Virus record (IMG/VR): IMGVR_UViG_3300028025_000092
DNA: 64,000 nucleotides
Direction: 5' to 3' (one strand)
Source of the DNA: a virus
Position numbers and translations under genes: made by a program. Shown here piece after piece: positions 5,808 through 43,310 of this stretch; the stretch's first letter is position 1; every line of letters begins with the position of its first letter. The notes under the pieces were generated by a model, which worked only from the letters and a program-made list of their open reading frames with translations, made no database searches and was not told the origin of the DNA.

Positions 5808-5808
5808 T

Positions 5809-7357: not shown

Positions 7358-7365
7358 GATATATA
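7358..7365 (+). promoter_or_regulatory. Putative late promoter GATATATA
   Basis: Lies 19 nt before the fibre ATG; the motif recurs before many structural genes. Confidence 0.7.
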
Positions 7366-7384
7366 AGTAAAGTATCCATTTGAA

Positions 7385-9934: not shown

Positions 9935-9938
9935 AATC

Positions 9939-11389: not shown

Positions 11390-11391
11390 TA

Positions 11392-12099: not shown

Positions 12100-12114
12100 G
12101 ATTTATTAGTTATA

Positions 12115-12891: not shown

Positions 12892-12917
12892 CATTTTATT
12901 CTTCCGAGGATTTCTTC

Positions 12918-12925
12918 TATATTTG
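12918..12925 (+). promoter_or_regulatory. Bacteroidota-type -7 promoter element
   Basis: TATATTTG lies 17 nt before the glycosylase ATG. Confidence 0.6.
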
Positions 12926-12942
12926 TAAAAACAAATACAAAT

Positions 12943-14453: not shown

Positions 14454-14468
14454 CACAATATGTTAATG

Positions 14469-14476
14469 GATATATA
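14469..14476 (+). promoter_or_regulatory. Putative late promoter GATATATA
   Basis: Lies 15 nt before the GTG at 14492. Confidence 0.7.
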
Positions 14477-14491
14477 CAATAAAATATCCGG

Positions 14492-15238
14492 GTGGCTAGT
14501 CGCATCAAAAATTTTAATGATTGGATTTTAAATGAGGATCAATTCTACCAAAAAGAATTGAATACTGCATTTTGGCAGGATCAACAGTTTGATCCTTCTA
14601 TCAGAGAAAAACTTCTTCAGATAGCAGAGGAATTTTATGCCACCTTTAAATTGGAAGTTCCTATTAGTGATATCCAATTAACTGGATCCCTTGCAAATTA
14701 TAACTGGACCCCAAAATCAGATCTCGATGTCCACGTTTTAACAGACTTTTCTAAGATCAATCCGGATATAGCTTTAGTTAAAAAAGGCCTAGACGGGCAA
14801 AGATTCGTTTGGAATCTACGTCATAACATAGTTATCAGAGGGTATGACGTTGAGCTTTATCTGCAGGATATTAACGAGCCTCACGTTGCTTCTGGTCTTT
14901 TCTCATTATTAAATAACGAATGGATCAGGGTTCCTAAGTACAATCCGCCACAAATAGACGAAAGAGATGTTCAGCTAAAATTTGAGGGTATTGTTAATGA
15001 TATCAATCAATTAAACGTACAACTTCAAAACCCCGCCCCAGAAATGGATCCGAGAGATCTTTATAATCATGCAGAAAAAGTCAAATCCAAGATCATGAAG
15101 ATGAGAAAGGACGGGCTTGCAGAGAGAGGGGAATTTTCGGTAGAGAATCTAGTCTTTAAAAAGTTAAGAAACGAAGGATATATACAGAATCTGATAGATC
15201 TAATATCAAGATCCTACGAAAAAATATATAACGAATAA
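14492..15238 (+). CDS. Pol-beta-superfamily nucleotidyltransferase
   Basis: LTGSLANYNW..SDLDVHV (GS..DxD) and DVELY. Confidence 0.85.
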   Translation: MASRIKNFNDWILNEDQFYQKELNTAFWQDQQFDPSIREKLLQIAEEFYATFKLEVPISDIQLTGSLANYNWTPKSDLDVHVLTDFSKINPDIALVKKGLDGQRFVWNLRHNIVIRGYDVELYLQDINEPHVASGLFSLLNNEWIRVPKYNPPQIDERDVQLKFEGIVNDINQLNVQLQNPAPEMDPRDLYNHAEKVKSKIMKMRKDGLAERGEFSVENLVFKKLRNEGYIQNLIDLISRSYEKIYNE

Positions 15239-15249
15239 AAAAAAATACA

Positions 15250-17829: not shown

Positions 17830-17842
17830 GGGTGATTTTATA

Positions 17843-17850
17843 GATATATA
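17843..17850 (+). promoter_or_regulatory. Putative late promoter GATATATA
   Basis: Lies 18 nt before the protease ATG. Confidence 0.75.
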
Positions 17851-17868
17851 CAAAAATAAATAATAATA

Positions 17869-19950: not shown

Positions 19951-19964
19951 CATTTTTATAGAAA

Positions 19965-21722
19965 ATGCAACTTATCAATCAACATGAAATCTATGATACC
20001 TGGGCACCAATCTTGGAAAGCAAAACAGGTATTCAAGAGAGAGGTAAATTAGACTGGTTAACTAAATACTGTCATTACCACTCATTAAACGAATCTGCCG
20101 GAGCGTATAACTCTTTAGGCGTATTAAACGGTATGGGCCAAGTATCTCCTGCTTCTAACGTAGGTTTAAACGGCGGTCCTGCTGGATTCTATGCAGGCGG
20201 ATCTTATTCTGGAACTGGTCTTGGTTCTGGCGATAAATTCCCTTCTCTTTTACCTTTAGCTATTCAAGTAGCTGCTAAAACAGTAGGTTTTGATATCGTT
20301 CCAGTTATCCCAATGAGCGGTCCTACAGGCGTATTATCATACTTAGACTATGTTTACGCAGGTGGTAAATTATCTGGTACTGACTCTGTATCTCCATACA
20401 CAGCAAACACTCCAGATCTAATCAAAGTTCCAACAACAACAGCTTCTCCTGTTACTGGTTTAACAGTAGGATCTACTTACCTTTTAGGTGCTTCTGGTCT
20501 TTCTTCAACAAAAGATTTAGACTCTGCAGGTGTAGGTGCTTTAGTAGCTGGTAAATTCGTTGGTAACTCAAGAATTGATGGCTTCCCAATTTTCCAAGTA
20601 GTAGCAATCACAACTGGTTTCTCAATTGCTGCAGCTATCGACGCAGACGCAGTTATCTACTCTGGTTCATTCGTAACCTCAACAAACGTTTACACAATCT
20701 CTGCTACAGTAGGTTATGCAAATGGTGCTGCTCAATTAGTTAAAACTTTAGAAGATCACGTACAAGGATTTACTGGTCTTGGAACTGCTAACGACGGTAC
20801 ATGGTCTGGTCCTTATGTAGACGGTACTAAAGCTTACGATCCAATGTCAAGAGGAACTGCTGAAAGCACTTACTTCAAATCATTAGGTCTTTCTACATTT
20901 ACTAAATTTGTAGAAGCTGGTACTTTCCAAGTTGCTGCTTCTGTTACAACTGAGCAAATCCAAGATTTAAACAAGCAATTCGGTATCGACGTAGTTTCTA
21001 TGATCGAGAACGCACTTGTTAATGAGGTTTCTCAGTCTATCAACAAGCACATCTTATCTAGAGCATTTGCTTTAGGATGGTCTAACCACTATGAATTTGC
21101 AAACACCGAATTAGGTGGAGCATCTTCTGCTTCTCTAAACATCAACTTAAAAATTGGTGCTGGTGGAGCTTCAACCGCATCTTTCATCGGTAAGGACAAT
21201 GGATCTTTAACAATCTATACTCCTGGCGATATCGCTACAGGCGGATACGAGAACCAATCAACTGTACAAAGAAGATTATTCTCAAGAATCTTGGCTGCTG
21301 CTAACGTAGTAGCAAACAGAGGAAGAAGAGGACCTGCTAACTTTATTGTTACTAACGCTCAAGTAGCTTCTGCTTTACAAGATATCTCTCAATTCACATT
21401 TGCTCCTTTCACAAACACGTTAACTCAAAATAACGGTACTTTATATCCAGTTGGTTCAATCGCTGGTATGACCGTTTATGTTGATCAAAACATGTCTTTC
21501 GGCGATACGAGAGTATTGGTTGGAAGAAAAGGTGCTGATGACGAACCAGGTATGAAATTTATGCCTTACATGATGGCTGAGTCAATTCAGACTATCTCTG
21601 AAGGTACAATGTCACCTAAAATTGCAGTTAAGTCTAGATACTCTTTAGTAGAGGCTGGACATCATCCTCAAACGATGTACTTATGCTTTAAAGCTATAGT
21701 GCCTGCAACTGGTATCGCTTAA
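19965..21722 (+). CDS. Major capsid protein (T4 gp23-like)
   Basis: VIPMSGPTGVL, EQIQDL..GID, NEVSQSINK, RRGPANF, PYMM and PKIAVKSRY; strongly biased codon usage. Confidence 0.95.
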   Translation: MQLINQHEIYDTWAPILESKTGIQERGKLDWLTKYCHYHSLNESAGAYNSLGVLNGMGQVSPASNVGLNGGPAGFYAGGSYSGTGLGSGDKFPSLLPLAIQVAAKTVGFDIVPVIPMSGPTGVLSYLDYVYAGGKLSGTDSVSPYTANTPDLIKVPTTTASPVTGLTVGSTYLLGASGLSSTKDLDSAGVGALVAGKFVGNSRIDGFPIFQVVAITTGFSIAAAIDADAVIYSGSFVTSTNVYTISATVGYANGAAQLVKTLEDHVQGFTGLGTANDGTWSGPYVDGTKAYDPMSRGTAESTYFKSLGLSTFTKFVEAGTFQVAASVTTEQIQDLNKQFGIDVVSMIENALVNEVSQSINKHILSRAFALGWSNHYEFANTELGGASSASLNINLKIGAGGASTASFIGKDNGSLTIYTPGDIATGGYENQSTVQRRLFSRILAAANVVANRGRRGPANFIVTNAQVASALQDISQFTFAPFTNTLTQNNGTLYPVGSIAGMTVYVDQNMSFGDTRVLVGRKGADDEPGMKFMPYMMAESIQTISEGTMSPKIAVKSRYSLVEAGHHPQTMYLCFKAIVPATGIA

Positions 21723-26129: not shown

Positions 26130-26669
26130 ATGTCCCTTTTTGTTATAGAAGGAGCTAGAAAATCTGGTAAAACACATTTCGTTAGTTCCCAAAACTGGAT
26201 TCCAGTATTTAAATTTGATTTCAATGGTGTTTATACATCATTAAATCTACCCCCCACTGGTGATAAAACACATCACATAGGTTTAGGTAAGGAACTAATG
26301 GTTCAACAGCTAAATAGGGATGGGTTTCTACCAGACCTAATGATGGATCGGGGGGTATTAACAAATTCGGTTTGGGGCATTCTAAATAAAAGGGTAACTA
26401 AAAAATCGGTTTACAAAGAACTTGATTATATGTTAGGCAACGGTCTTTTTAAAAATACATTTTTTTTCCTCGTAACTGGTACGCATCCAGAGAAAAGAGA
26501 AAAAGATGTGTGGGATGATATGGATGAAAGGATACCAGAAGAAAGTGCTCTCTTTATTGAATTTACCCAGCATCTTATAGATGGTGGTGTAAATATACAA
26601 ATCATAGAAAATAAGTTTGACGCAGAATCCCTATCAAATTTTCAAACCATAATTAAGAATTTAAAATAA
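26130..26669 (+). CDS. P-loop dNMP/thymidylate-kinase-like protein
   Basis: IEGARKSGKT and MMDRG. Confidence 0.65.
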   Translation: MSLFVIEGARKSGKTHFVSSQNWIPVFKFDFNGVYTSLNLPPTGDKTHHIGLGKELMVQQLNRDGFLPDLMMDRGVLTNSVWGILNKRVTKKSVYKELDYMLGNGLFKNTFFFLVTGTHPEKREKDVWDDMDERIPEESALFIEFTQHLIDGGVNIQIIENKFDAESLSNFQTIIKNLK

Positions 26670-28093
26670 TGTGCGGAATACTAATTGCCAATAATCCCTC
26701 CGAGGAAAGAATAAACTCCATTGCACACAGGGGTATAGAATACTCAACACATTCTGATGAATCTGGTTTAACCCTTGTACACCACAGATTGCCTATCCAG
26801 ACAGCAATTGGTGATAAGTGGATACAGCCTATAGAGGTATCAAAAGATCGATATCTTTTATTTAATGGGGAGATTTTTAATTATCCCCTTGGATTTAGCT
26901 CAGATACTGAGTATTTAGTGAGTCTTTTTTCAACCTTTGACTTTTCATCACTTGAGATGTTTAGCGCTATCTACGAGCCTTATATTAAGTCTTGGGATGG
27001 ATTCTGGGCTATCTGTCTGGTTGACATGTCAAAAAAAGATGTATTCTGCTTTACCGATCCTCTAGGAAAGAAATGCCTATATTATAATGAAATGGGAGAG
27101 ATATGCTCTGAGATGAAAGGATTGATTACGGGGAACTCTTTTATAGATAACGGTTTTATGGGAGGGGTAAGAAAATGGGGATACATTCCTAACGAATCTA
27201 CCCCGTTTACTGATATCAAAAAAATAAAACCAAACACCTTTTATAAGTGGAATTTCTCCTCCCCGTCTTTCAAACAGGAGTACGGTCCTTATTTCGCATT
27301 TAAACCATCCAAATTTGCATTTGAATCCGAAGACATATTATTGGATTGGGTATGGGAAAAAACTGAAGCAGCGACAAGAAATAGACTGTTAAGCTTAGAT
27401 TATCCTATATCTATTCTACTGTCCGGAGGATTAGACTCTTCTATCATAGGTGGACTCCTATTAAAACTGGGGGCTGATGTTAGCTGGTATACCATAAATA
27501 ATGGGCCAGATAATGATTATGTTAAAGAATGTGAGTCTTATTGGGGAATCAAGGTAAATCGATTGGATTATACCATGAATGAGGATTCAATGAATTTACC
27601 AGATCTTTATTTTAAGTGGAACGAAAGCCCGGTAGATCTGGGAAGTGTTATTCCACAGTACCTCCTATTTGATGCAATTAAAAAAGGGACTGATACACGT
27701 ATAGTATTATCGGGTGACGGGGCAGACGAAATGTTTGGAGGATATAGAAGAATTAACGAGTATGATTCACAGGCATCTGATGTTTTTCATGAATTAACTT
27801 ATTACCACCTTCCTAGACTCGATAAAATGAGTATGGCTCATACTTTAGAACTTAGAAATCCATTTTTAAATCTAGAACTTATGCAATTAGCTTTGGCTCT
27901 TCCGTTTGAAATGAGAAAGAATAAAACCATACTTAAGAAAGCATTTAAGGGTTTAGTTCCGGATTCGGTCATAGAAAGAAAAAAGCATCCTCTTAAGAAC
28001 GAAAAAATAGCAAAAGACCCTATGGAATATAGGATAGAATCTTTAAAATATTTCGAAGAAGGATTTAATCAATACAAGGAAGGTCTAAAATAG
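26669..28093 (+). CDS. asnB: Asparagine synthetase (glutamine-hydrolysing)-like amidotransferase
   Basis: N-terminal MCGI (Ntn Cys), HRG, FNGEIFN, LLSGGLDSS, SGDGADEMFGGY and LELRNPFL. Confidence 0.9.
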   Translation: MCGILIANNPSEERINSIAHRGIEYSTHSDESGLTLVHHRLPIQTAIGDKWIQPIEVSKDRYLLFNGEIFNYPLGFSSDTEYLVSLFSTFDFSSLEMFSAIYEPYIKSWDGFWAICLVDMSKKDVFCFTDPLGKKCLYYNEMGEICSEMKGLITGNSFIDNGFMGGVRKWGYIPNESTPFTDIKKIKPNTFYKWNFSSPSFKQEYGPYFAFKPSKFAFESEDILLDWVWEKTEAATRNRLLSLDYPISILLSGGLDSSIIGGLLLKLGADVSWYTINNGPDNDYVKECESYWGIKVNRLDYTMNEDSMNLPDLYFKWNESPVDLGSVIPQYLLFDAIKKGTDTRIVLSGDGADEMFGGYRRINEYDSQASDVFHELTYYHLPRLDKMSMAHTLELRNPFLNLELMQLALALPFEMRKNKTILKKAFKGLVPDSVIERKKHPLKNEKIAKDPMEYRIESLKYFEEGFNQYKEGLK

Positions 28094-31278: not shown

Positions 31279-31884
31279 TTGAAACACCTATTCTCTTATA
31301 AAGATCTATTCGAAAGTACCTCTGCAGGATCACAGGATAGGGGTACGGTGGATTTATCCACTTTTAAATTTGCGATCAATTATGATCCTAGGCTTGGTTA
31401 CACCAAAAAAGATTTCTCAATGGATCTTATTGAGATCTATAAGGGTATGTCAAAAAGGGAAAGATCTGAATTAATGGATGTGATTTTTAAATCAGGTGGG
31501 GTGTTTAGGATTTCAGAGATATCTGAACTTTCCCAAGAAATCGTAGATGAAATCATAAAAAATGTAGAAACCCTTCTGGACAGTAAATCTGTTTATAAAA
31601 TGCAGGTACTCCCTGATGGGTATATTCTTTGTTATGAGGGGTTAAAACATAAAGGAAGGATTTGTGATGTCTATTATTCCCCTTCGGATGAAAAAGTTAA
31701 AATATCATACACTGACACATATCCAGAAATGGAGACTGTTACGATTTCAGCGGAATCTTTTAATCCTTCCTCGGTAAACATCGAAACTGATGATTTCTTA
31801 TCAACAAAAAATAAATGCGATAATTTTATAGGAACAAACCAAATTATAGCATCGAAAGATAGTCCCGATAATTATTCACTATAA
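31279..31884 (+). CDS. Hypothetical protein with a CTS-like leader (TTG start)
   Basis: MKHLFSYKDLFES. Confidence 0.6.
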   Translation: MKHLFSYKDLFESTSAGSQDRGTVDLSTFKFAINYDPRLGYTKKDFSMDLIEIYKGMSKRERSELMDVIFKSGGVFRISEISELSQEIVDEIIKNVETLLDSKSVYKMQVLPDGYILCYEGLKHKGRICDVYYSPSDEKVKISYTDTYPEMETVTISAESFNPSSVNIETDDFLSTKNKCDNFIGTNQIIASKDSPDNYSL

Positions 31885-32572
31885 ATTCTATAGATTTATC
31901 CTTAATTATATCAAAAGATATTTCTTCCTCCCCTTTATTTTTTTCTAGATCTACCATAATAAAACAATGGGAGTTTTTAGGGGATATGCTAATTTCTTTA
32001 TTGAAGAAATCATATATTTTTTTATCGGATTTAGTATACCCCGGAATTGGATCTAAAAGTTCACTAAGGAGTAACCCAACTTGATCTATCTCATCTATTC
32101 TTATTATGGAAAAGGCCCAGGAGTAGATTTTCATCTTTTTATCCTTGTTATTTCTCATAACAACAAAACCCTTATCTTTGGTGAAAATGTCATCGTTGTG
32201 TATTTTAAACCTTATTGATCTTTCTATTTCTTCCAGATAGGGATTTATTTTATCAAGAAATCCATCCAGAACCTCTAGACTACCGTCTAAGATATAATCG
32301 ATCTCCTCATCATTTTGGTTTAATATGGTAAGCTCGTTAATTTTGTCTATTTCATTCTGGGTCATAGATCTAAGCGTTTTATCACTTAATCTGTTAGTCT
32401 TCTGAAAGTTTTTAATATCATTATAAACTCTATTTATTTTTTGAATCTGTTCTGAGTATTTCTTTTGGCCCAGATCGATTTCAACGGATTGCAGAAAATC
32501 CATTAGAACATAATACTTATGCTCAGCATCTATGGGGTTTTGTAAAAACCAATATGGTTGTAAACTCTTCAT
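31844..32572 (-). CDS. Hypothetical protein
   Basis: 242-aa ORF; N-terminus WFLQNPIDAEHKYYVLMDFLQ. Confidence 0.65.
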   Translation of the reverse strand: MKSLQPYWFLQNPIDAEHKYYVLMDFLQSVEIDLGQKKYSEQIQKINRVYNDIKNFQKTNRLSDKTLRSMTQNEIDKINELTILNQNDEEIDYILDGSLEVLDGFLDKINPYLEEIERSIRFKIHNDDIFTKDKGFVVMRNNKDKKMKIYSWAFSIIRIDEIDQVGLLLSELLDPIPGYTKSDKKIYDFFNKEISISPKNSHCFIMVDLEKNKGEEEISFDIIKDKSIEFIVNNYRDYLSML

Positions 32573-32719
32573 TGTTAATAACTATAATATATAACCTAAA
32601 TCCGGTCGGTTTCCTCTATTAAAAAAAATATTTCTGATTTTTGGAAACTTTCCCTAAAAAGGCTGCTAAAATTGTTATCTATTAACATCCTGGGTTATGA
32701 ATATTATCTATAGTCTCTT

Positions 32720-33298
32720 ATGAGCCCCTTTCTTGTAATAGCTTATTATACCCCAGGAAACCATTACGAAGCTCTCTCGGAAAATCTTAAAGAATCTTGT
32801 AAAGAATTTAACCTCCCCCTGGTTTTAAAGCCAATTCAGAATCTAGGATCCTGGGAAAAGAACACACACTATAAGGCAGAATTTATTTACGAATGTCTCC
32901 ATGCATATAACCAAAATCTAGTTTATGTAGACGTTGACGCAGTCTTTAGAAAATATCCAATACTTTTTGAAGAATTAGATTGTGATATAGCATATCGGAC
33001 CGAGAATTTTAGATGGAGAAAAAACGAAGCATTAAGTGGCACCATATTTCTAAATAACAGCGGCAGGGTAAAATCCCTGGTTAAAAGTTGGATCTCAATA
33101 AATGAAGCTAAACCTGCTATTAGAAAATTACCTTCGACTTGGGAGCAAGCTAATATGCAAAGAATAGTTGAAAGGGATCCTTCTATAAATTATTACAATC
33201 TACCTCCCGAGTATACCTATATCTTTGATCATACCAAAAGAATGTACCCGGATATAGAACCGGTAATTGAGCACTTTCAGGCTTCTAGAAAGGTTTGA
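32720..33298 (+). CDS. Nucleotide-diphospho-sugar transferase (GT-A fold)
   Basis: WEKNTHYKAEFI, VYVDVDA (DxD), SGTIF, WEQ and VIEHFQASR. Confidence 0.8.
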   Translation: MSPFLVIAYYTPGNHYEALSENLKESCKEFNLPLVLKPIQNLGSWEKNTHYKAEFIYECLHAYNQNLVYVDVDAVFRKYPILFEELDCDIAYRTENFRWRKNEALSGTIFLNNSGRVKSLVKSWISINEAKPAIRKLPSTWEQANMQRIVERDPSINYYNLPPEYTYIFDHTKRMYPDIEPVIEHFQASRKV

Positions 33299-33304
33299 TA
33301 TATA
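33297..33304 (+). promoter_or_regulatory. Putative late promoter GATATATA heading the glycan operon
   Basis: Lies 19 nt before the ATG at 33324. Confidence 0.7.
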
Positions 33305-33323
33305 AAAAAACAATAAAATAGAG

Positions 33324-34454
33324 ATGTCGTTCGAAAAAGTGAGAAGACTCAGGGTTTCCCTCAGTAATATCTTAAATCCTACACCTAAAGAAAATACAGG
33401 AGAAAAACCCATGAAAGATATTGAGAGTGTAGTCCCTGTAGAGGTTCAAATGACCCCTAGGATAGTTAGCTACTATTCAGATTTTAATGACACAAAATAT
33501 TATGAGAATTTTGCTAAGATCCTGTCAGACCGATGCAAATTATTTAATTTAACTTATGATATAAACGAGCTTCCCTCTAGGGGAAATTACGGCGTGAATT
33601 GCTTAATGAAGCCAGAATTCATCTTAGATAAAATAAAGGAGTATAAGAAGCCCTTGATCTGGATGGACTGTGACACCGATTTCAAAGAGCCCTTTCCCCA
33701 TTTTAATTCAGTTGAAGAAGATATAGGAATGGCGACGCACAGCGGAGAACTTGATGGAATTAAAGCATCCCCCCTGTATTTCAACTACACCAAGGGCGCT
33801 TTTAGAATAATAAGGGAATGGGTAGTTCACTGTAGAGCTTGCTATGATTTAGGAATAACTGAGTTAGACCACGATGCTTTAAAGCATTACGTTTTAGATT
33901 TTCTAAAGGGTTCATACACATCTTATTTATTAACCGAAAACTGGAACGATTTTGTACATGGGCGATACATCTGGAACGGGAACTCAAGGGTTGAAGGAAA
34001 GGTTCAGATTCACAGAAAAGTTGGGGTGAGCGACGATACAAGGAGGTCATATTCACAAAATGTTAAACACATTAAATTATTTTTTGAATCCGATGACGAA
34101 AAGGTATTTAAGTGTGCTCTAAACTTTTTAAATAGATTTTCAAACAGATCAAGATTATCTTTTAATTTTTCACCAAAGCTTCTAGATTTATCCCCAAAAA
34201 ATCCCTATTTTAATTCCCTTGAAATAGAATCAGGAGGATCTGTCCATTTTGGTGATAACAATTTTATTACCACGGATGTAGGTAAAACCGATATTTTAAT
34301 CTCTGTAAATAATGTTAAAGATATTGAAAATGATTGGGACCTTAAAATATTATCAGCGGAAGACAGATTAATTAATCCTCTATATGAATTAAATTTTGAA
34401 GACGAGGGTAGGGGAAGTATTAAAATAAAAACATCTAAAAAAATATGGATATGA
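33324..34454 (+). CDS. Nucleotide-diphospho-sugar transferase paralogue with an extra C-terminal domain
   Basis: NCLMKPEFI and IWMDCDT (DxD); similar to the 32720 ORF. Confidence 0.75.
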   Translation: MSFEKVRRLRVSLSNILNPTPKENTGEKPMKDIESVVPVEVQMTPRIVSYYSDFNDTKYYENFAKILSDRCKLFNLTYDINELPSRGNYGVNCLMKPEFILDKIKEYKKPLIWMDCDTDFKEPFPHFNSVEEDIGMATHSGELDGIKASPLYFNYTKGAFRIIREWVVHCRACYDLGITELDHDALKHYVLDFLKGSYTSYLLTENWNDFVHGRYIWNGNSRVEGKVQIHRKVGVSDDTRRSYSQNVKHIKLFFESDDEKVFKCALNFLNRFSNRSRLSFNFSPKLLDLSPKNPYFNSLEIESGGSVHFGDNNFITTDVGKTDILISVNNVKDIENDWDLKILSAEDRLINPLYELNFEDEGRGSIKIKTSKKIWI

Positions 34455-35296
34455 TAAAAGGAATAGGAATGCCCTTTCCTGCCGAATACTCTTCGTGCTC
34501 AAATATTAAACCTGATACATTCTCATGGACTAATGGCGAATCTGATATACATGTCTACATAGATGATAAGATAATAGAGGGCCTATCGACCCCTAGGCAT
34601 GATTTAAAATTTGGATGGCTTTGCGAATCACCTGCAATAATGCAAGAGATACACTTTGTAATCAAAGAAAATCCCCAAAGATTTAAAAACAAATACGCAG
34701 GCATATTTACTTGCGATTTAGAATTATTAGAGGATCCCTTTTTTATCTACTCTCCTCCCGGATCTAATCTTCCATGGACGAGGACTGAAGAAATGGCTCT
34801 TTATGAAAAAACTAAACACTGTTCTATGATATCCTCTCCAAAGGCAAGAACTGCAGGACATCAATATAGATTAGAGGTTGCTGGATTACTAAAAAATAAA
34901 TTAGATCTTTTTGGGGGTGCACACGGATCTCAGAGAATTGGTGATGGATCAGGTCCTAATCAGGATTGGTGGAGATCAAAGCTACCCGCAATAAAGGACT
35001 ATATGTTTTCAATTGTTTTTGAAAACACGGTACATGATAAGTACTATACCGAAAAAATAACGGACTGCTTTGCCACTGGGACAATTCCAGTTTATTGGGG
35101 TACTAAAAAAGTGACAGAGGATTTTAATCAAGAGGGTATTATATTTTTTGATGATATTAAAGGAGATTTAGAAATATTATCAAAAGATCTGTACGAATCT
35201 AAAATGCCTGCGATAATAGAAAATCTTGGAAGAGTAAAAACCCTAGAATCTGCCGATAATATTATTTATAAAAAAATTAAGTCATGGATTCCATAA
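34445..35296 (+). CDS. GT10-like (alpha-1,3/4-fucosyltransferase-like) glycosyltransferase
   Basis: YMFSIVFEN..YYTEKITDCFATGTIPVYWG. Confidence 0.85.
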   Translation: MDMIKGIGMPFPAEYSSCSNIKPDTFSWTNGESDIHVYIDDKIIEGLSTPRHDLKFGWLCESPAIMQEIHFVIKENPQRFKNKYAGIFTCDLELLEDPFFIYSPPGSNLPWTRTEEMALYEKTKHCSMISSPKARTAGHQYRLEVAGLLKNKLDLFGGAHGSQRIGDGSGPNQDWWRSKLPAIKDYMFSIVFENTVHDKYYTEKITDCFATGTIPVYWGTKKVTEDFNQEGIIFFDDIKGDLEILSKDLYESKMPAIIENLGRVKTLESADNIIYKKIKSWIP

Positions 35297-36123
35297 AAAT
35301 AAATTGGCATTCTAGTATTAATTTTGGAGATGAGTTAAATCCATATCTTATTAAGAAGCTGTGGAATATGGAATCTGTAAAAGTAAACGAGGGGGATGAA
35401 TCACCCCATTTAATGATGTTAGGATCTATATTAAATGAAGCCAATAAAGGAACAATTATAATGGGTGCGGGTTTAGTTGCAAGTGATAGAACATTTACAG
35501 GAAATCCCAAATTCATAGGTCTTAGAGGAAAATTAACCAAAGCTATATTAAAAGAAAGGGGCTTTAAAGTAGATAATGTTTTTCTTGGAGATCCCTCGGT
35601 ATTACTGCCAGAATTTTACAATCCCCATATTGAAAAAAAGTATGATCTGGGAATTATTCCGCATTTAGTTGATTATGAAAATGCTTTAAATATTTTTAAT
35701 GATACTGAAAGATTTTTAGTGATTGATTTAAGAATTGATGAAAATAATACAATAGAGAAAATAATAGATAAAATAAAATCGTGCAAATGTACTATATCAA
35801 GTAGTCTTCATGGATTTATTGTATCTCATGCTTATGGAATACCTGGAACCTGGTGTAAATTTTCTGATAATGTTATAGGAGATGGCTTTAAATTTATTGA
35901 TTATCTTTCTGCTTATACTGATTTATATAACGAGGTACCATTTTTCGATTTAAGGAATTTAGAAAAAGAAGAAATTAATATCGATAAAATTATAGAGTTA
36001 TCATCTATCACTATAATAAACAATCAAATAGAATTAGAAAGAATAAAAGCGGGATTAGAATTAGGAAAATTGAGAATTAACCAGATGAAAAAAAGAAAAA
36101 ATTATCATCGAGTAGTAAATTAG
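35284..36123 (+). CDS. Polysaccharide pyruvyl transferase family protein
   Basis: NFGDELNP, LRGKLT, GDPSVLLP, GIIPH and SSSLHGFIVSHAYGIP. Confidence 0.85.
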   Translation: MDSIKINWHSSINFGDELNPYLIKKLWNMESVKVNEGDESPHLMMLGSILNEANKGTIIMGAGLVASDRTFTGNPKFIGLRGKLTKAILKERGFKVDNVFLGDPSVLLPEFYNPHIEKKYDLGIIPHLVDYENALNIFNDTERFLVIDLRIDENNTIEKIIDKIKSCKCTISSSLHGFIVSHAYGIPGTWCKFSDNVIGDGFKFIDYLSAYTDLYNEVPFFDLRNLEKEEINIDKIIELSSITIINNQIELERIKAGLELGKLRINQMKKRKNYHRVVN

Positions 36124-36125
36124 AT

Positions 36126-36770
36126 ATGAAATTAAATTTAAATAGAGTAACTGCGATTTGTATAGACGGAAGACCCTATGACAAAGAAAGGTACGAGAGA
36201 TACTCTCTTATTCTTAATTTCTTTATTTCAAATGTGGAATTTTCATCGCTACGCATGATATCCACTCATAATCCGGAAATAGAGGGTGTTTCACATACAT
36301 TAATAAAAGAATTTGTAATATCAGATTACTCAAGATTCTGTTTATATAATTTAACAGATTGGGTTAATTCTGAATTTTGTCTTATTTTTCAAGATGACGG
36401 ATTTATACTTAATCCCAACCTATGGAACGATTCTTTTTATGAATATGATTATATCGGATCTCCCTGGCCTCTTTATATGGGTTGGCCAGAAGAAGGAAAA
36501 CAGGTAGGTAACGGAGGATTTTCTTTAAGAAGTAAAAAACTTCTCGAATTTACCAAAACCTTTATAGATCACACAACAGAAAACGAGGATACCTATATAA
36601 TTTCCACGAAAAGAAAAGAGATAGAGAATGAAGGATTAAAAATAGCACCTTTAGAAATTGCTAGACTTTTTTCAATTGAGAATGGTTTAGATAGCGAGCA
36701 TCGATTGGATACTTGTTTTGGATTTCATGCCAAGCATTTATTAAATGATGCAATAAAAATGATACAATAA
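36126..36770 (+). CDS. DUF5672-like putative glycosyltransferase
   Basis: FQDDGFI, YDYIGSPW, VGNGGFSLRS, ED and FGFH. Confidence 0.8.
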   Translation: MKLNLNRVTAICIDGRPYDKERYERYSLILNFFISNVEFSSLRMISTHNPEIEGVSHTLIKEFVISDYSRFCLYNLTDWVNSEFCLIFQDDGFILNPNLWNDSFYEYDYIGSPWPLYMGWPEEGKQVGNGGFSLRSKKLLEFTKTFIDHTTENEDTYIISTKRKEIENEGLKIAPLEIARLFSIENGLDSEHRLDTCFGFHAKHLLNDAIKMIQ

Positions 36771-37495
36771 TGAAAGTAATGGCATACTATCCAGTTCACT
36801 ATGGAGCTGAATATTTTGAGGCATCTATTAAATCAATAGATGATCAGGTTGATAAAATTCTAGTTCTTTATACACCCAAACCTAGCTATGGTCATGTAAC
36901 AGAAAAGCAATGTCCCGAAACAGAAGATGAATTAAAGGAGATAGCATTCGTATCTTCTAATAAAATAGAATGGGTTACTGTAGATGCTGGTAATGAAGGA
37001 AATCACAGAGCATTAGCATACACCAATGCATCTGAATATGATATCATGCTAACACTAGATACCGATGAAGTTTGGGATCCTACCTCCTTAGAAACATGTA
37101 TCAAAGAAACTTATGATGGAGAAGCATGGAGAAGAAATATTTCTGGGTTTATTCATTTTTGGAAATCCTTTAATTGGGTATGTCAAGACGGATTTCAACC
37201 TGCTAGGATTTTTAATCTAAAAAGAAACAACCACCAAGAGGTGTCAATCAATGGAACAATCTATCACTTCGGTTATGCACAGTCTAAAAAAATAATGGAT
37301 TATAAATTTGACATACATGGCCATAAAAATGAGATTAAAGAGGGATGGCTAGAGAATACATATTATGCATGGGAGCCAGGAAAACTTGATTTACATCCTA
37401 CGTGTGGTGTTTGGCCAGAAGCTAAACCCTTTGATAAAAACACACTCCCTGATATTTTAAAATCACATCCTAATTTCAATAAAGAAATAATATAA
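36770..37495 (+). CDS. GT2-like glycosyltransferase
   Basis: SIDDQVDKILV, LDTDEVW and IYHFGY. Confidence 0.7.
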   Translation: MKVMAYYPVHYGAEYFEASIKSIDDQVDKILVLYTPKPSYGHVTEKQCPETEDELKEIAFVSSNKIEWVTVDAGNEGNHRALAYTNASEYDIMLTLDTDEVWDPTSLETCIKETYDGEAWRRNISGFIHFWKSFNWVCQDGFQPARIFNLKRNNHQEVSINGTIYHFGYAQSKKIMDYKFDIHGHKNEIKEGWLENTYYAWEPGKLDLHPTCGVWPEAKPFDKNTLPDILKSHPNFNKEII

Positions 37496-37506
37496 TAAAT
37501 ACAAGA

Positions 37507-38079
37507 ATGAAAAATATAATATCAAAAATACTTGAAATAACTAACGATCAACTAGATTCGATAGATTTAAGTGCATATAAAAAACTAACTAATAGTATAG
37601 ATACACCAAAAGAATGGTTTTATTTAGAATCTGGAAGAGAACATTATAGGTTAATTGCCTATATTAGTACACTATTTCAAGAGAGTCAATTATTAGACAT
37701 TGGAACGTACCAAGGAAGTTCATCTATTGCTATGTCTTATAATAGCAATAATTCTGTAATATCTTTTGATGTAAATCCACAACCAGAAATATCAAGAATT
37801 GATATAAAAAATATAAAATATAATATTGGTAACGTTTTAGATTTTACTGAAATTATATTAAAATCCCCTCTAATTCTATTAGATACCTTTCACGACGGAA
37901 CCTTTGAAAAAGAATTCATTGATAAGCTTACTGAAATTAATTACAAAGGAATAGTATTATTCGATGATATTCATCTTGATGGACCAATGCAGATTTTTTG
38001 GGATTCTATTAGTATTGAAAAATACGATTTAACAGAAAAGGGGCATTATACAGGTACAGGATTGGTTTATTTTAAATAA
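37507..38079 (+). CDS. Class I SAM-dependent methyltransferase
   Basis: LLDIGTYQGSS, LLDTFHDG and VLFDDIH. Confidence 0.8.
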   Translation: MKNIISKILEITNDQLDSIDLSAYKKLTNSIDTPKEWFYLESGREHYRLIAYISTLFQESQLLDIGTYQGSSSIAMSYNSNNSVISFDVNPQPEISRIDIKNIKYNIGNVLDFTEIILKSPLILLDTFHDGTFEKEFIDKLTEINYKGIVLFDDIHLDGPMQIFWDSISIEKYDLTEKGHYTGTGLVYFK

Positions 38080-38091
38080 AAATATAACAAA

Positions 38092-38604
38092 ATGGGAGAA
38101 TTAACAATGGGATCTAGATCCTATGGTAATATTATTAGAAGAGGAGTACATAATTCAATAACTGTCGGAAAATATTGTTCCTTAGCTGCTGGTTTAGTAA
38201 TAGACGGGGGTTTTAGTCATAATACCAAATTCATATCAACATATCCTTTTAATGTCAATTTTAATCAATGTTCCTATCTAACTGGGCATCCGACATGGAA
38301 AGGCGACGTTATTATAGGAAACGATGTTTGGATAGGGGAGGATTGCTTAATAATGAGCGGTGTAACAATAGGAGACGGTTCTGTTATAGGAGCACGTTCG
38401 ATAGTAACAAAAGATATTGATCCATATTCTATAAATGTTGGATCACCTTCCCGTAAGGTTAAGCAACGCTTTAGCGATAATCAAATCTCAGACCTATTAA
38501 AAATCAAATGGTGGGATTGGGAGGAAGATAAAATTATCGAAAATGCACATTTATTAATGAGTGAAGATATAGATCTTTTTATAGAAAAACATAAAATATT
38601 TTAA
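38092..38604 (+). CDS. CatB/Vat-like hexapeptide O-acetyltransferase
   Basis: IIGNDVWIG..GVTIGDGSVIGARSIVTKD and KWWDW. Confidence 0.9.
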   Translation: MGELTMGSRSYGNIIRRGVHNSITVGKYCSLAAGLVIDGGFSHNTKFISTYPFNVNFNQCSYLTGHPTWKGDVIIGNDVWIGEDCLIMSGVTIGDGSVIGARSIVTKDIDPYSINVGSPSRKVKQRFSDNQISDLLKIKWWDWEEDKIIENAHLLMSEDIDLFIEKHKIF

Positions 38605-38609
38605 TATAA

Positions 38610-39347
38610 ATGTCAGTATCAATTAACTACACTGGAAGATTTGGTAATAATATTACCCAATATATTTTTTCAAGAATTTTTGCAGAAAATAATGGGCTTC
38701 AATTAATTAGTGAATTTAATCACAAAAAAGGTCCGATAGAATTTACAACACCCAAGCCAGGAAAAATTGTAAAAGGTGATTTAATAGAGATAACGGATCA
38801 TAACAAAAATATTTTAAATAAAAAATGGGATCAATGTAATTATTCAATTAATGGTTATTTTCAAAAATCAGATTTTTATATCGAAAGACGGGATCAAATC
38901 CTGTCTTTTATTAAAAGTGAAAAAGCTAACTTAAACTATGAAGATATAGTAATGCACGTTAGATTAGGTGATTATTTATTTAAAATTCATCCTAATTGGT
39001 ATTTAGATATATTAAAATCCCAAAAATTTAATAAGCTTTATATTGTAATGGAGGAAAGGGACGAAAAATATCTTTCATATTTTAGCAAATATGATCCAAT
39101 ATGCATATCAACAAATAAGTATGACGATTGGAATTTTATTAAATCATTCGATCGTATAATCTGTTCGAATTCAACTTTTAGCTGGTGGGCATCTTTTTTG
39201 AGTGATGCTAGTAAAATATGGACATTTAATAGGTGGACCGATACTCCCGATTTATATCATTTAAATAAAATACATAACGGGATACCCGTCGATGGTCCTT
39301 TAATAAAAAGCGACATATCAAATACTATTTTAGATCTAGAATATTAA
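38610..39347 (+). CDS. GT11 alpha-1,2-fucosyltransferase-like protein
   Basis: GRFGN..QY, GYFQ, HVRLGDY and NSTFSWWA. Confidence 0.88.
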   Translation: MSVSINYTGRFGNNITQYIFSRIFAENNGLQLISEFNHKKGPIEFTTPKPGKIVKGDLIEITDHNKNILNKKWDQCNYSINGYFQKSDFYIERRDQILSFIKSEKANLNYEDIVMHVRLGDYLFKIHPNWYLDILKSQKFNKLYIVMEERDEKYLSYFSKYDPICISTNKYDDWNFIKSFDRIICSNSTFSWWASFLSDASKIWTFNRWTDTPDLYHLNKIHNGIPVDGPLIKSDISNTILDLEY

Positions 39348-39356
39348 TATAATTAC

Positions 39357-40292
39357 ATGGGAAAAAAAATTGCAGTCTTTGGATCAACCGGTTTAGTTGG
39401 ATCTAATATCATTAAAAAAATAGATCAAGAGAAATATCAGATCTATGCCCCTTCTAGAAAAGACCTAGATCTTTTTGATCAGAAAAAGGTCCTAGATTGG
39501 TTCTTTGAAAATAAAGTGGAATATGTAATTCTTGCAGCTGCTAGGGTTGGAGGAATAGTTGCTAATTCAACATACCCTACAGAATTCTTACATGAGAATC
39601 TCACAATCCAGAATAATATTATAATGTCTGCTTTAAAGAGCGATGTCAAAAATCTTATATTTCTAGGATCTTCTTGCATTTATCCGAGAGAATGTCCACA
39701 ACCAATTAAGGAAGAATATCTACTAACCGGTCCTTTAGAAAAAACAAATAAGTCGTATGCCCTTGCAAAAATTGCGGGAATACAACTCTGTGATTCTATT
39801 AGGGAACAGTATGGGAAAAATTATTATTCTCTAATGCCGTGTAATCTTTATGGACCTGGGGATAATTTTGATTTAGAAGCTTCCCATGTTATTCCTGGAA
39901 TGATTAGAAAAATAGAGAATGCTAGGGATAATAATGAACCAACTCTTAAATTACTTGGAACTGGAAGACCCCTTAGAGAATTTCTCTATGTGGAGGATCT
40001 AGCAGATGGCGTGATATTCATGCTGGAAAATTATAAAGGATCCCAAGGATTAATTAATATAGGAAGCGGGTCTGAGGTATCAATAAAAGATCTAGCAAAT
40101 ATAGTTGCACATGCTATAGGATATAAAGGAGAAATTTTATTCGACACTGAGGGATTAGACGGAACACCTAGAAAAATAATGGATAATTCCAAGATAGAAT
40201 CTTTGGGTTGGAAACCTAGAATCACCTTAAAAACAGGGATAGAGGAAACTGTTAAATGGTACTGGGACAATAGAGATAAAATTAGAAAATGA
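39357..40292 (+). CDS. fcl: GDP-L-fucose synthase
   Basis: [40 protein letters not shown] and [10 protein letters not shown]. Confidence 0.95.
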
Positions 40293-41296
40293 AAATAGCA
40301 TTAATCACCGGGGTAAACGGACAGGACGGATCATATTTAGCAGAGTTGCTTCTCGAGAAGGGGTATATGGTTCATGGCACAATCAGAAGATCGTCATCAT
40401 TCAATTCTGGAAGAATAGAACATTTTAGGGAACATCCTAATTTTAAAAGACACTATATGGATCTGACAGATTCAGGAAATGTCTCCCATATAATTTCACA
40501 ACTAAAACCCGACGAAATCTATAATTTAGCTGCGCAGAGTCACGTTAAAATATCTTTCGATATTCCAAATTATACTGGACAGGTCGATGCTATGGGAACA
40601 TTAAATGTTTTAGAAGCAATTAGAACTCATTCACCAAATTCTAAATTATATCAGGCTTCTACGTCTGAATTATACGGCAAGGTACAGGAAACCCCACAGA
40701 AAGAAACAACTCCATTCTATCCAAGATCACCCTACGGAGTTGCAAAACTATATGGATATTGGATTGTTAAAAACTACAGGGAGTCTTATAATTTATTTGC
40801 ATGTAATGGAATTCTTTTTAATCACACATCTCCTCGCAGAGGTGAAAACTTTGTTGAGAAGAAAATTATAGATTCCCTTTGTCAAATTAAAAAGGGAAAA
40901 ATAGATATACTAACACTAGGCAATCTTTCCGCCCGTAGAGACATAGGTCATGCTAAAGAATACGTTGAAGGAATGTGGAGAATGCTACAATTGGAATCCC
41001 CTGAAGATTTTGTTCTTGCAACAGGTAAAACCTATTCTATTAAAGAGATGGTCAATATGGTTTGTCAAAAATTAGATATAGATCTAGATTGGAAAGGTGG
41101 AGGAGAACAAGAAATAGCAATAGATAAATCGTCTGGTAGAATTATTATAGGGATAGATCCCAAGTATTATAGACCAGCTGAAGTTGAGCTTTTACAGGGG
41201 GATGCTTCTAAAGCTAAATCAGTATTAGGATGGGAACCAACCCTATCTCTGTCAGAAATATTTGATGAGATGATAGCAGAATCACTAAAGGATTAG
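40289..41296 (+). CDS. gmd: GDP-mannose 4,6-dehydratase
   Basis: [34 protein letters not shown] and [11 protein letters not shown]. Confidence 0.97.
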
Positions 41297-41526
41297 TGAT
41301 TAGTGTTTGATACAATTTCATTTGCTTTTAAAAGGGTTTCTACTGTTTTAACATCGTACTTGGTTTGTCCAGGAACCCCCCAATCTTTTTGTTCACCCCA
41401 ATTAATAAATCCCTGATGTGTTATATGATTTCCTGAATTATAAGAAAAATCGTGATGACCTTCTTTAGCAGATGATTTTTCAAACTCGTTTCTCGAGCTG
41501 ATGTTTTTATATCCGTATTTTTCCAT
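41293..41526 (-). CDS. Small hypothetical protein
   Basis: Translationally coupled to the upstream minus-strand gene. Confidence 0.55.
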
Positions 41527-42104
41527 TATTTCTTTTTCTTTCTTAGGTTAGCCTTTGCTTGTTTATAAAGTGCCTTATCTCCCATTTTAGAGGTCTTACC
41601 TCCTGTAACAAATGAGTTAACCCTTGCCATTGCCCATTGTTGGGGATTAGTTCCTGGAATATGGCCTATTTTCCATGCTGCGTATCCTCTTTTCCACACT
41701 TTCTTTAAAATGCCTAACGGAAATCTGGTTTTTTCAGATTTCTTTTTAAGAGCTTTATTTACCGGACTAGAAACAGAATCCACACCCTCATTAAGATTAT
41801 CCAAGTTATATTCTTCGTTTAATTCGTTAAAAACCTCCCATGCTGCAATTTCTGCTGCTTCTAAAAAGGAATCAAATCCTAATAGTTCGTTGTTTTCGTT
41901 TTCCCCAAACATTTTCTTGTATTTTTTTGTGTATTGACTAGTTTTTGTATCTACTGGTTTACCCTTTCCTGCTTTTCCTGACTTATAATCAGCATCCCAT
42001 TCAGTATATGCCGACGGATCATTATCAGCCTTATCCTTATTCTTTTTAATCTCCCTTTTCATTATTCTGGGATTTTTGGACAAATATTTCTTAGGAACTT
42101 TCAT
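41526..42104 (-). CDS. Basic protein with a DUF5824-like C-terminal domain
   Basis: VWKRGYAAWKIGHIPGTNPQQWAMARVNSFV; internal FDSFLE..LNEG; GAATATATA at 42110-42118 (minus). Confidence 0.6.
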   Translation of the reverse strand: MKVPKKYLSKNPRIMKREIKKNKDKADNDPSAYTEWDADYKSGKAGKGKPVDTKTSQYTKKYKKMFGENENNELLGFDSFLEAAEIAAWEVFNELNEEYNLDNLNEGVDSVSSPVNKALKKKSEKTRFPLGILKKVWKRGYAAWKIGHIPGTNPQQWAMARVNSFVTGGKTSKMGDKALYKQAKANLRKKKK

Positions 42105-42190: not shown

Positions 42191-42823
42191 ATGTTTAAAA
42201 AGCTAAAGAAAATAATAAGCATTATGACAGAAAAAGATCTTTCCGAGCTGAAAGAAGAATATGAGAAGTATTCCTATCAGTGGATAAAGGGTGACAATCT
42301 ATCTATAACACAGCACTACCAGGATATTTTAGAAGAGGGAGGTAAAAAGTATATTATCTTCACTGATAAAAGCCGTATATCTTTAGACCTTTTGGACGAG
42401 TATATGATCAGGGTAGAAAGAGGATTCGAGGAGCAGGTAAAAGTTATTAACCCAACAAAGGAACTAATTCAAATGGACGAAGAAATTACCAAGCAGAGCG
42501 TGGTAAAATCCAGGGAATTATCACAGGATAAACAAAAAGTTGAAATTGAAAATAGCCCCATATTTTCTTTGCTTGCAAAACAGAAAGAAAACTGGGTGGA
42601 CGTGGATCTTAGATTGAGCATTAATTTACCACCCAAAAGCCTCTGGGACGTTTTAATGGGATCTTTTGATGATGCTGAAAAAGATATTCTGGAGTACGTG
42701 ACAAAGGACCTTGATATAGAGGTTGTGAGGCAATCTTTGAGGGAATCTATAAAAGAGATATATAAAAAAAATAAAAATATTCCACTAAAAAATGTCAGAT
42801 CCCAAGATTCTGTTCCAGAATAA
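42191..42823 (+). CDS. Hypothetical protein
   Basis: 210-aa ORF; YQWIKGD motif. Confidence 0.65.
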   Translation: MFKKLKKIISIMTEKDLSELKEEYEKYSYQWIKGDNLSITQHYQDILEEGGKKYIIFTDKSRISLDLLDEYMIRVERGFEEQVKVINPTKELIQMDEEITKQSVVKSRELSQDKQKVEIENSPIFSLLAKQKENWVDVDLRLSINLPPKSLWDVLMGSFDDAEKDILEYVTKDLDIEVVRQSLRESIKEIYKKNKNIPLKNVRSQDSVPE

Positions 42824-43310
42824 CTACATAGAGGTTATAGAAAATAAAGGCATTGTTGGAATTAAACAAAAAAGCCCATCAGTAATTATACTTCCATATA
42901 CCACAGATGAATCGGGTAATCCTAGATCTCTGGGATTAATAGCCGAACCTTCGTCCATTAAGGAAGAAAAAATAACACACACTATTATAACAGGTAGTCC
43001 AGAGGATTCTGATGTTGATATTCTAGCAACAGCCAAAAGGGAATTAAAAGAAGAATCTGGATATGAGGTCGAAGACACAGAGAAGTGGGATTTTTTAGGA
43101 AATATACAAACCTCTAAGTTAATTGTTAACGGAAATCCAGCTTTCGGCGTGGACGTTACTGACCTACAGAATAAAGAAAAATCCGGCGACGGATCAGACA
43201 AGGAAGAAAATACAAAATTTTCTCTTATTCCAGTAAATGACGCTATAAATTTAGATGATGCTTTAATCTCTTGTTTATTTCTAAAAATATTTCAAAATAA
43301 ATTAATTTAA
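42792..43310 (+). CDS. NUDIX hydrolase
   Basis: Nudix box GSPED..TAKRELKEESGY; GATATATA at 42757-42764. Confidence 0.85.
   Translation: MSDPKILFQNNYIEVIENKGIVGIKQKSPSVIILPYTTDESGNPRSLGLIAEPSSIKEEKITHTIITGSPEDSDVDILATAKRELKEESGYEVEDTEKWDFLGNIQTSKLIVNGNPAFGVDVTDLQNKEKSGDGSDKEENTKFSLIPVNDAINLDDALISCLFLKIFQNKLI

Follow-up and report, generated by a model that had tools for sequence, protein, structure and literature searches.

What does a phage do with its own pathway for building a fucosylated glycan, and on which acceptor is the glycan placed? The question is raised by a cluster of eleven genes at positions 32720-41296 of a 64,000-nucleotide stretch of the IMG/VR record IMGVR_UViG_3300028025_000092 (hereafter the window, meaning this whole stretch). 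A first-pass annotation had read the cluster as a late-expressed virion glycosylation system. The source is an uncultured jumbo phage, and its host probably belongs to the Bacteroidota. We regard glycosylation of the virion as the best reading, tentatively and a little short of calling it probable; it appears favored by the position of the genes within the structural module, by a promoter-like motif shared with structural operons, by core enzymes that seem specific to phages, and by precedents in other viruses.

The segment comprises exactly 11 co-directional open reading frames (ORFs), in agreement with the first-pass annotation:

32720-33298, plus strand: ORF1, 192 residues, GT-A-type glycosyltransferase, Nucleotid_trans-like, with a DVD motif (PF03407, 20.5 bits, just below the cut-off of 22)
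33324-34454, plus strand: ORF2, 376 residues, predicted by AlphaFold and Foldseek to have a disordered N-terminus followed by a GT-A catalytic domain (DCD motif), with an alpha/beta domain at the C-terminus
34445-35296, plus strand: compact (283 residues) GT10 alpha-1,3/4-fucosyltransferase (PF00852, 36.2 bits against a cut-off of 23.9)
35284-36123, plus strand: polysaccharide pyruvyl transferase, variable cassette (PF04230, PS_pyruv_trans, 60.2 bits)
36126-36770, plus strand: DUF5672 protein, conserved island core gene (PF18922, 72.9 bits)
36770-37495, plus strand: ORF6, 241 residues, probable GT2-like glycosyltransferase (LDTDE motif, lead from language-model neighbors)
37507-38079, plus strand: ORF7, 190 residues, probable S-adenosylmethionine (SAM)-dependent O-methyltransferase, variable cassette (motif-I-like LLDIGTYQGSS)
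38092-38604, plus strand: hexapeptide-repeat acetyltransferase of the XAT (Vat/CatB-like) class, variable cassette (PF00132, 43 bits; NF000311, 150 bits, below its cut-off; phrog_16087, 172 bits)
38610-39347, plus strand: ORF9, divergent GT11-superfamily fucosyltransferase, variable cassette (PF01531, 23.7 bits against a cut-off of 23.9; phrog_2644 glycosyltransferase, E 3e-7)
39357-40292, plus strand: GDP-L-fucose synthase, Fcl (NF047922, 415 bits over residues 2-308, below the equivalog cut-off of 500 bits; PF01370, 200 bits)
40289-41296, plus strand: GDP-mannose 4,6-dehydratase, Gmd (PF16363, 465 bits)

Between 33324 and 41296 the intergenic gaps range from -13 to +12 nt, the start of gmd overlapping fcl by 4 nt, and we propose that this part forms one transcription unit. 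Gmd and Fcl, both full length and adjacent, make up the de novo GDP-L-fucose pathway, and the first-pass assignment of GDP-fucose synthesis holds. The same is true of the GT10 enzyme. Its ORF contains FSIVFENTVHDKYYTEK, matching FxxxFENxxxxxYxTEK, which we take to be the conserved motif of the alpha-1,3-fucosyltransferase donor-binding domain, and the motif FENTVHDKYYTEK is invariant in the family alignment (A3), with E193, N194, Y200, T202, E203 and K204 fixed in 18 members. In the PDB, the family profile matches only alpha-1,3-fucosyltransferases (H. pylori FucT with E 4e-13, FucTA and FUT9). The GT10 homologues form at least 867 clusters, all unnamed, and among the 120 clusters listed all but three carry PF00852. 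A search of 185,579 species genomes for the full-length compact form returns seven contigs of metagenome-assembled genomes that match most of its length, and no isolate. Distant GT10 homologues occur on contigs of 320-474 kb.

The GT11-like assignment of ORF9 is weaker. Its PF01531 match stays just below the cut-off and spans a 32-residue stretch only. ORF9 carries HVRLGDY, in which the second arginine of HxRRxD(Y/F) is replaced by leucine, and SNSTFSWWA; we assume HxRRxD(Y/F), a GDP-fucose motif, and a C-terminal S(T/S)FSWW to be the marks of GT11. Such motifs are common to the wider GT11/23/65/68 superfamily, and the weak PDB profile match of ORF9 is FUT8. Its relatives in other islands reach 29 bits with PF01531 for the closest one (37% identical) and 79-103 bits for three more distant ones (21-22% identical).

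For comparison, 14 IMG/VR loci were reached through ORF2 homologues and further loci through major capsid protein (MCP) relatives. Besides the fucosyltransferases, the first-pass annotation had counted four GT-A-type enzymes; two of them stand, ORF2 by its model and Foldseek neighbors and ORF1 as its paralogue, while ORF6 and the DUF5672 protein could not be verified as GT-A. The confident AlphaFold model of ORF2 (alignment A1, pLDDT 87.7) is that of a GT-A enzyme, and Foldseek places it next to the capsid-glycosylation enzyme A64R of PBCV-1, the best PDB neighbor, GlyE, Mimivirus R699, LARGE1 and LH3, with E about 1e-5. The match with A64R is weak (E 1e-5, TM 0.32/0.53, 12% identity) and of a sort common to many GT-A enzymes, including polysaccharide synthases. 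The giant-virus likeness claimed at first fits in enzyme types and in the identity of this best neighbor, while its structural score is weak. BFVD neighbors of ORF2 are giant-virus and phage glycosyltransferases, and its homologue clusters are all metagenomic (78 of 78). ORF1 is a shorter paralogue of the ORF2 N-domain; we consider it a candidate priming enzyme that marks the left border of the island. The hhalign comparison of DUF5672 and ORF6 with the ORF1/2 GT-A profile is not significant. DUF5672 is found in nine of the 14 island variants and in the cyanophages S-B05, S-B43 and S-H68, its Atlas neighbors are all viral, and the family has no match in 14 control bacterial and archaeal genomes. 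ORF6, present in five of the 14 variants, has no match in Pfam, PHROG or PDB; its Atlas neighbors are viral, one neighboring cluster having PF00535 in 23% of its members, and its sequence points to a probable GT2-like glycosyltransferase. PDB sequence and profile searches with ORF2, ORF5, ORF6 and ORF9 returned nothing usable.

Among the three decorating enzymes that had been announced, the pyruvyl and acetyl (XAT) transferases are secure; the pyruvyl transferase occurs, among the compared variants, only in the window and in L005. The methyltransferase is weakly backed: ORF7 matches only O-methyltransferases in the PDB, with E values of 0.03-0.08, and its hhalign comparison with the Methyltransf_24 family of the islands covers the core yet is not significant. 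ORF7 looks, though weakly, like a class I O-methyltransferase. The check by hidden Markov models and transmembrane prediction that the first-pass annotation proposed yields the families listed above and zero membrane segments in the 11 ORFs, the highest Kyte-Doolittle mean over 19 residues being 1.37. Its statement that flippase, polymerase, initiating transferase and membrane proteins are missing extends to the 14 island variants, in which none of the 216 ORFs encodes a membrane protein (four have a single marginal window of 1.62-1.73), and to the contigs of five relatives (51-86% complete or, for flippase and polymerase or ligase, 35-86%), in which Wzx (PF01943), Bac_transf (PF02397), Glycos_transf_4 (PF00953) and Wzy_C (PF04932) return no match. 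As controls, PF02397 and PF00953 find matches in 9 and 12, respectively, of 14 control genomes.

The window has a GC content of ~34% and encodes a portal, a DNA ligase, an exonuclease, a collagen-like tail fiber, a prohead protease and the MCP, with baseplate hub and wedge proteins downstream. Its MCP is 39-43% identical to those of the Lak megaphages and of a 462-kb uncultured phage. IMG/VR lists ~230 MCP relatives, whose contigs reach 373 kb in length, and the closest long relative measures 245 kb at an estimated completeness of 86%, which together indicate a jumbo phage. A promoter-like element of the Bacteroidota sigma-A type, TAnnTTTG, lies at -25 to -29 of the ligase gene (3050), of the gene at 12943 and of a unit starting at 26130, in agreement with a host from the Bacteroidota; what is described of the freshwater "moraphages", jumbo phages of Bacteroidota related to the Lak phages, agrees with this too (PMC12619734). 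The phage is apparently lytic: no tyrosine integrase was found in the contigs of five relatives, serine integrases not having been searched for. Megablast of the cluster and of positions 1-20000 against 50,697 phage records gives no match.

The island has been inserted at a single fixed site, flanked by homologues of the genes at 31844-32572 and 42191-42823, and this site lies inside the block that runs from the portal, fiber, protease and MCP genes to the baseplate genes. In a distant clade, with MCPs 64-67% identical, the two bordering homologues are only ~1.7 kb apart, and an island of 9 to >16 kb occupies the site in the clade whose MCPs share at least 70% identity. Segment 32720-42190 has no counterpart in the island-negative genomes, and the GT10, ORF1/2 and DUF5672 families are absent from the whole of four near-complete distant genomes (92-100% complete). 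In a second lineage (L010-L012), the protease-MCP operon has a related cluster some 1.3-2.3 kb away. At its right edge, the segment inserted in the window carries:

41293-42104, minus strand: two small convergent genes encoding 77 and 192 residues, the latter a DUF5824 protein (51.5 bits)

Both genes occur only in the closest relatives, L001-L005; the 192-residue DUF5824 protein (41526-42104, minus strand) is lysine-rich. Beyond them, the NUDIX protein at 42792-43310 was considered as a GDP-mannose hydrolase of the system and dropped, as it shows only weak NudF matches and is present in island-negative genomes too.

The 14 island variants hold 216 ORFs in 85 families. The ORF1/ORF2 family is present in all 14, short-chain dehydrogenases/reductases of the gmd/fcl type in 13 and GT10 in 11. 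The conserved core consists of the ORF1-type GT-A enzyme, the gmd/fcl-type enzymes and GT10, and the middle is exchangeable. Variable genes encode FkbM and other methyltransferases, GT2, GT25, GT6, GT17 and GT11 enzymes, a KdsA-like synthase with a SIS isomerase, DegT, WbqC, a FabH-like enzyme, PhyH, PIG-L and PS_pyruv_trans; a single Glyco_trans_1_2 gene is confined to variant L003. Compared with L001, the window shows ~85% DNA identity in both flanks, while 35145-39362 is replaced except for the DUF5672 gene. That gene and ORF6 are 86% identical to their L003 counterparts, whose flanks reach just 71-74%; cassettes therefore move between lineages. At the border, ORF1-type copies are 53-82% identical as against 30-49% for the neighboring gene 31844-32572, and the ORF1 homologues of the deeper clade are still 53-64% identical against the same 30-49%. 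This conservation would fit an enzyme tied to a conserved acceptor. In L099, L100, L101 and L103, the ORF1-distal end of the island holds a module in which a SIS-domain sugar isomerase and a weak GT2/cytidylyltransferase-like gene accompany a KdsA-like (DAHP_synth_1) synthase. This suggests a pathway for a 3-deoxy sugar of the Kdo type, such as has been reported in the giant virus CroV and the cyanophage S-SCSM2R. One variant encodes a GT6 (histo-blood-group-type) transferase and several encode GT11 and GT10 enzymes, combinations that could make blood-group-like or Lewis-like fucosylated ends.

Two upstream elements bear on how the cluster is expressed:

33297-33304, plus strand: promoter-like motif GATATATA, 27 nt before the ORF2 start (33324) and overlapping the ORF1 stop codon
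32573-32719, no strand assigned: divergent intergenic region upstream of ORF1 with a conserved element and the near-palindrome TGTTATCTATTAACA

That the operon from 33324 shares GATATATA with head and tail genes is confirmed and applies to baseplate operons as well. The window contains 12 such sites where 6.1 are expected, a count that is not striking, whereas their positions are: 10 of the 12 precede the start of a co-oriented ORF by 16-35 nt. Written as [GA]ATATATA, the motif is found at -23 to -35 of 13 units (7385, 14492, 15250, 17869, 21825, 23810, 31279, 33324, 42792 and 43983 on the plus strand; 28085, 29650 and 30509 on the minus strand), which include those of the tail fiber (7385), of the protease and MCP (17869) and the one at 43983 leading into the baseplate genes. 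At related loci, 40 of 52 motif sites precede an ORF start, and in L001-L005 the motif is kept before the ORF2 homologue within a divergent spacer. The tight spacing suggests short leaders and a phage-specific sigma factor; in the relatives there are genes for two sigma-like proteins, 211 and 123 residues long, and a scan for the sigma-70 consensus is not above shuffled sequences. Late expression of the cluster would follow only from the genes that share its motif. ORF1 lies outside this unit, upstream of the motif and behind a different element: within 32650-32719, ~50 nt before the ORF1 homologue are nearly invariant in L001-L005, relatives that are 66-85% identical in DNA, and GATATATA is absent from 32573-32719. 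The element with TGTTATCTATTAACA could be an operator or another class of promoter for the putative priming transferase. A further GATATATA site (18474-18481) lies inside the 693-residue protease gene (17869-19950) with no start codon at the usual distance, and might drive a nested product, for example a scaffold.

From this material we infer the order of the pathway steps, their timing and the acceptor as follows. The island would encode a soluble, cytoplasmic glycan-assembly system of a large phage, in which GDP-L-fucose is made from host GDP-mannose by Gmd and Fcl. Priming of the acceptor probably falls to ORF1, the one small GT-A enzyme retained at the left border in the islands compared, and the chain would be extended by ORF2, the GT10 and GT11-like fucosyltransferases and probably also ORF6 and the DUF5672 protein. 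The pyruvyl-, methyl- and acetyltransferases would decorate it, using phosphoenolpyruvate, SAM and acetyl-CoA. Since 33324-41296 would be transcribed behind the same GATATATA element as the head, tail-fiber and baseplate operons, we propose that the glycan is made while virions assemble. The acceptor would then most likely be a phage structural protein, giving the virion a glycan coat whose structure cassette exchange may diversify between close relatives. It is possible, and we put it forward more cautiously, that this coat is serotype-like: ORF1 would prime a structural protein, the cassettes would build fucosylated, Lewis- or blood-group-like, pyruvylated or methylated chains, and close relatives would differ in their surface chemistry. 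Cultured cyanomyoviruses share compact GT10, DUF5672 and Gmd with this phage, and their long-standing "LPS genes" might therefore also serve a virion coat.

Several observations weigh against the virion as acceptor. No acceptor signature was identified in the phage, and its virion proteins show no Ser-Gly excess, the collagen-like fiber excepted. This fiber (7385-9934) contains ~400 residues of collagen-like (G-S/T-S)n repeats, which account for a GC-rich stretch at 8-10 kb, followed by a C-terminal chaperone-like domain; many such fiber genes occur per genome throughout the lineage, some encoding proteins of >2000 residues. As an acceptor the fiber was rejected, for such fibers are also present in island-negative genomes and do not co-occur with the island. 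The only lead comes from the MCPs of island-positive phages (19965-21722 in the window), which have three extra Ser/Thr/Gly-rich loop segments, at residues ~75-79, 182-188 and 232-239, in a hypervariable region, that are missing in island-negative MCPs; these could be surface loops or glycan sites, a pattern that is confounded by phylogeny. Since the four near-complete, more distant genomes lack the island, virions can be assembled without it. The motif is found ahead of non-structural genes too, namely those of a RimK-like ligase, a hyper-acidic protein and the NUDIX protein, and it is not consistently found at the islands of the deeper island-positive clade. Lipid-linked synthesis of O-antigen and capsule, too, normally relies on soluble glycosyltransferases. 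Lastly, the homologous clusters of cyanomyoviruses sit in an auxiliary-gene region, outside the structural genes, and their authors read them as modifying the host cell wall, an interpretation made without experiments (PMC9602691, PMC12801897).

These cyanomyovirus "LPS/cell-wall" islands, from large T4-like phages (S-SCSM1, S-SCSM2R, S-SSM7 and P-SSM2), are built of parts homologous to those of the island described here. Identity with cultured cyanophages is 35-37% over ~90% of the length for GT10, whose compact form is carried by the Synechococcus phages S-SSM7, S-SM2, S-T4 and S-SCSM2R, 37% for DUF5672 and 59-63% for Gmd; both kinds of island also hold GT11, GT25, GT2, methyltransferase and KdsA-type genes, and the cyanophage enzymes, so far as considered, are all soluble as well. 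They differ in that the hosts belong to another phylum, that auxiliary genes (hli, 2OG oxygenases, NAD synthetase), instead of head-region and baseplate genes, surround the S-SSM7 cluster, and that neither a fixed insertion site, nor a bordering ORF1-type enzyme, nor a promoter motif shared with structural genes is described for them. A "minor coat protein" gene lies between glycosyltransferase genes within the S-SSM7 cluster (NC_015287.1; 16015-16521 in locus L124).

To our knowledge, phage particles outside the mycobacteriophages are generally treated as unglycosylated, and the mycobacteriophages provide the only phage case with chemical proof. In Che8 (gp110), Corndog (gp38) and Myrna, as these are cited in PMC12363180 and PMC12619734, soluble phage glycosyltransferases decorate capsid and tail-tube subunits in the cytoplasm. 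The island resembles this type in that its transferase genes are placed with structural genes and share their promoter-like motif; in the accounts given by these citing papers, the mycobacteriophage systems comprise few transferases, have Actinomycetota hosts and are not reported to synthesize GDP-fucose. A further precedent is that of the giant viruses, whose capsid and fibril glycans are made by soluble viral enzymes: the clusters for the capsid N-glycan of chlorovirus PBCV-1 and for the fibrils of Megavirinae combine a viral GDP-mannose dehydratase, an epimerase/reductase, soluble GT-A enzymes and methyltransferases, all cytoplasmic, as would be the case here (PMC9614988). Pyruvyl transferase annotations occur in mimivirus-like genomes, as in the island. 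In contrast, the hosts of PBCV-1 and Megavirinae are eukaryotic, and their clusters show no synteny with the island. As for the moraphages, to which the present phage compares by description (MCP 39-43% identical to the Lak group, ~34% GC, TAnnTTTG promoters, relatives of 245-373 kb and phage sigma factors), four glycosyltransferase orthogroups are reported in at least 80% of genomes, their role being left open and fucose not mentioned (PMC12619734). The island is clade-specific; what is lineage-wide is a separate protein of 410-435 residues with an N-terminal GT2 domain, encoded far from the island and kept in island-negative and some island-positive genomes (contigs G009, G012-G016 and G019-G024), which may be one of the moraphage "core" glycosyltransferases.

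Remodeling of the host envelope is the alternative that survives best, although we judge it rather unlikely. Here the soluble phage enzymes would act on host intermediates linked to undecaprenyl phosphate, from the O-antigen, the capsule or the general O-glycan of Bacteroidota, and the host flippase, ligase or oligosaccharyltransferase would display the product, blocking superinfection or the re-adsorption of progeny to debris. The variable cassettes indeed hold families typical of surface polysaccharides (GT25, WbqC, DegT, FkbM methyltransferases, KdsA-like with SIS, PS_pyruv_trans and GT6), transferases of such pathways normally lack membrane spans, the cyanophage clusters have been interpreted in this way, and a serotype-like turnover of cassettes fits any exposed glycan. 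With Wzx/Wzy or ABC-transporter loci for O-antigen and capsule, the island shares conserved ends around a variable middle, the same enzyme families, nucleotide-sugar genes at one end and cassette exchange among nearly identical genomes; unlike them, it lacks a priming phosphoglycosyl transferase, a flippase, a polymerase, a transporter and a chain-length regulator, and the priming transferase, flippase, polymerase and ligase are equally absent from the incomplete contigs of the five relatives. Host export enzymes are substrate-selective, and a glycan assembled by at least six foreign transferases would need to get past them. Characterized seroconversion modules, namely GtrABC, Oac and Wzy-beta/Iap, are membrane proteins of temperate phages, whereas the integrase search (tyrosine type) was negative here. 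The island moreover lies within the structural module and shares its promoter motif, and its core transferases have no close counterparts in cultured bacteria. It is plausible, then, as the first-pass annotation held, that the glycan is not a product of host surface conversion.

That the enzymes act on another cytoplasmic acceptor, such as a non-virion phage protein, a host protein, a free oligosaccharide or a glycolipid, serving takeover of the host or evasion of its defenses, appears improbable. The sequence itself names no acceptor, the motif heads the RimK-like ligase, hyper-acidic and NUDIX genes as well, and bacteria do know cytoplasmic glycosylation of non-structural targets, as in the rhamnosylation of EF-P or by toxin glycosyltransferases. 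Against this, multi-step, decorated and hypervariable glycans typify exposed surfaces and not single-sugar regulatory marks, and the island keeps a fixed place between head and baseplate genes in two lineages.

Hypermodification of DNA, in which hydroxylated pyrimidines would be glycosylated before packaging as a protection from restriction, is very improbable; pyruvylation and FkbM-type methylation of DNA-linked sugars are not known to us. DNA can be decorated, late and before packaging, by phage clusters in which nucleotide-sugar synthesis goes together with several glycosyltransferases, and a P-loop kinase and AsnB-like pair lies 5 kb upstream of the cluster (26130-28093), but the known clusters pair GT-B (GT4-like) enzymes with a homologue of thymidylate synthase, along with nucleotide kinases and a dCTPase (PMC13326640), whereas the transferases here are GT-A, GT10 and GT11-like and the kinase/AsnB pair is present in island-negative genomes too. 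A link through thymidylate synthase was considered and rejected, its homologues being equally present in island-negative and island-positive genomes, with no co-occurrence: PF00303 is found in the island-negative G014, G019, G021 and G022 and in only some island-positive contigs, and no homologue is found in the island of the window or in two island-positive contigs that are 79-85% complete. An ORF of 259-273 residues (G001, G015 and G019-G022), present in both clades and in some genomes beside a normal ThyA, matches thymidylate synthase at positions ~110-173 only, with 17-19 bits; it may be a divergent pyrimidine-modifying enzyme.

Clusters of gmd, fcl and fucosyltransferase genes in cyanophages, virion glycosylation in mycobacteriophages and core glycosyltransferases in moraphages are already known. 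What is new here is the defined insertion site in the structural module, the conserved ORF1-type transferase at its border, serotype-like cassette exchange documented in the DNA itself and the homology that ties the island to cultured cyanophages. The fixed site, the border transferase and the swappable cassettes together make the question of the acceptor testable in cultured cyanophages that carry homologues. If the host envelope were the target, the island would represent a seroconversion route without a membrane component in lytic phages, which would also be new. With virions as the target, a self-made and rapidly diversifying sugar coat would be carried by a large group of aquatic jumbo phages, and such a coat would bear on adsorption and aggregation, on grazing by protists, on recognition by lectins or antibodies, and on how the "cell-wall" auxiliary genes of marine cyanophages are read.

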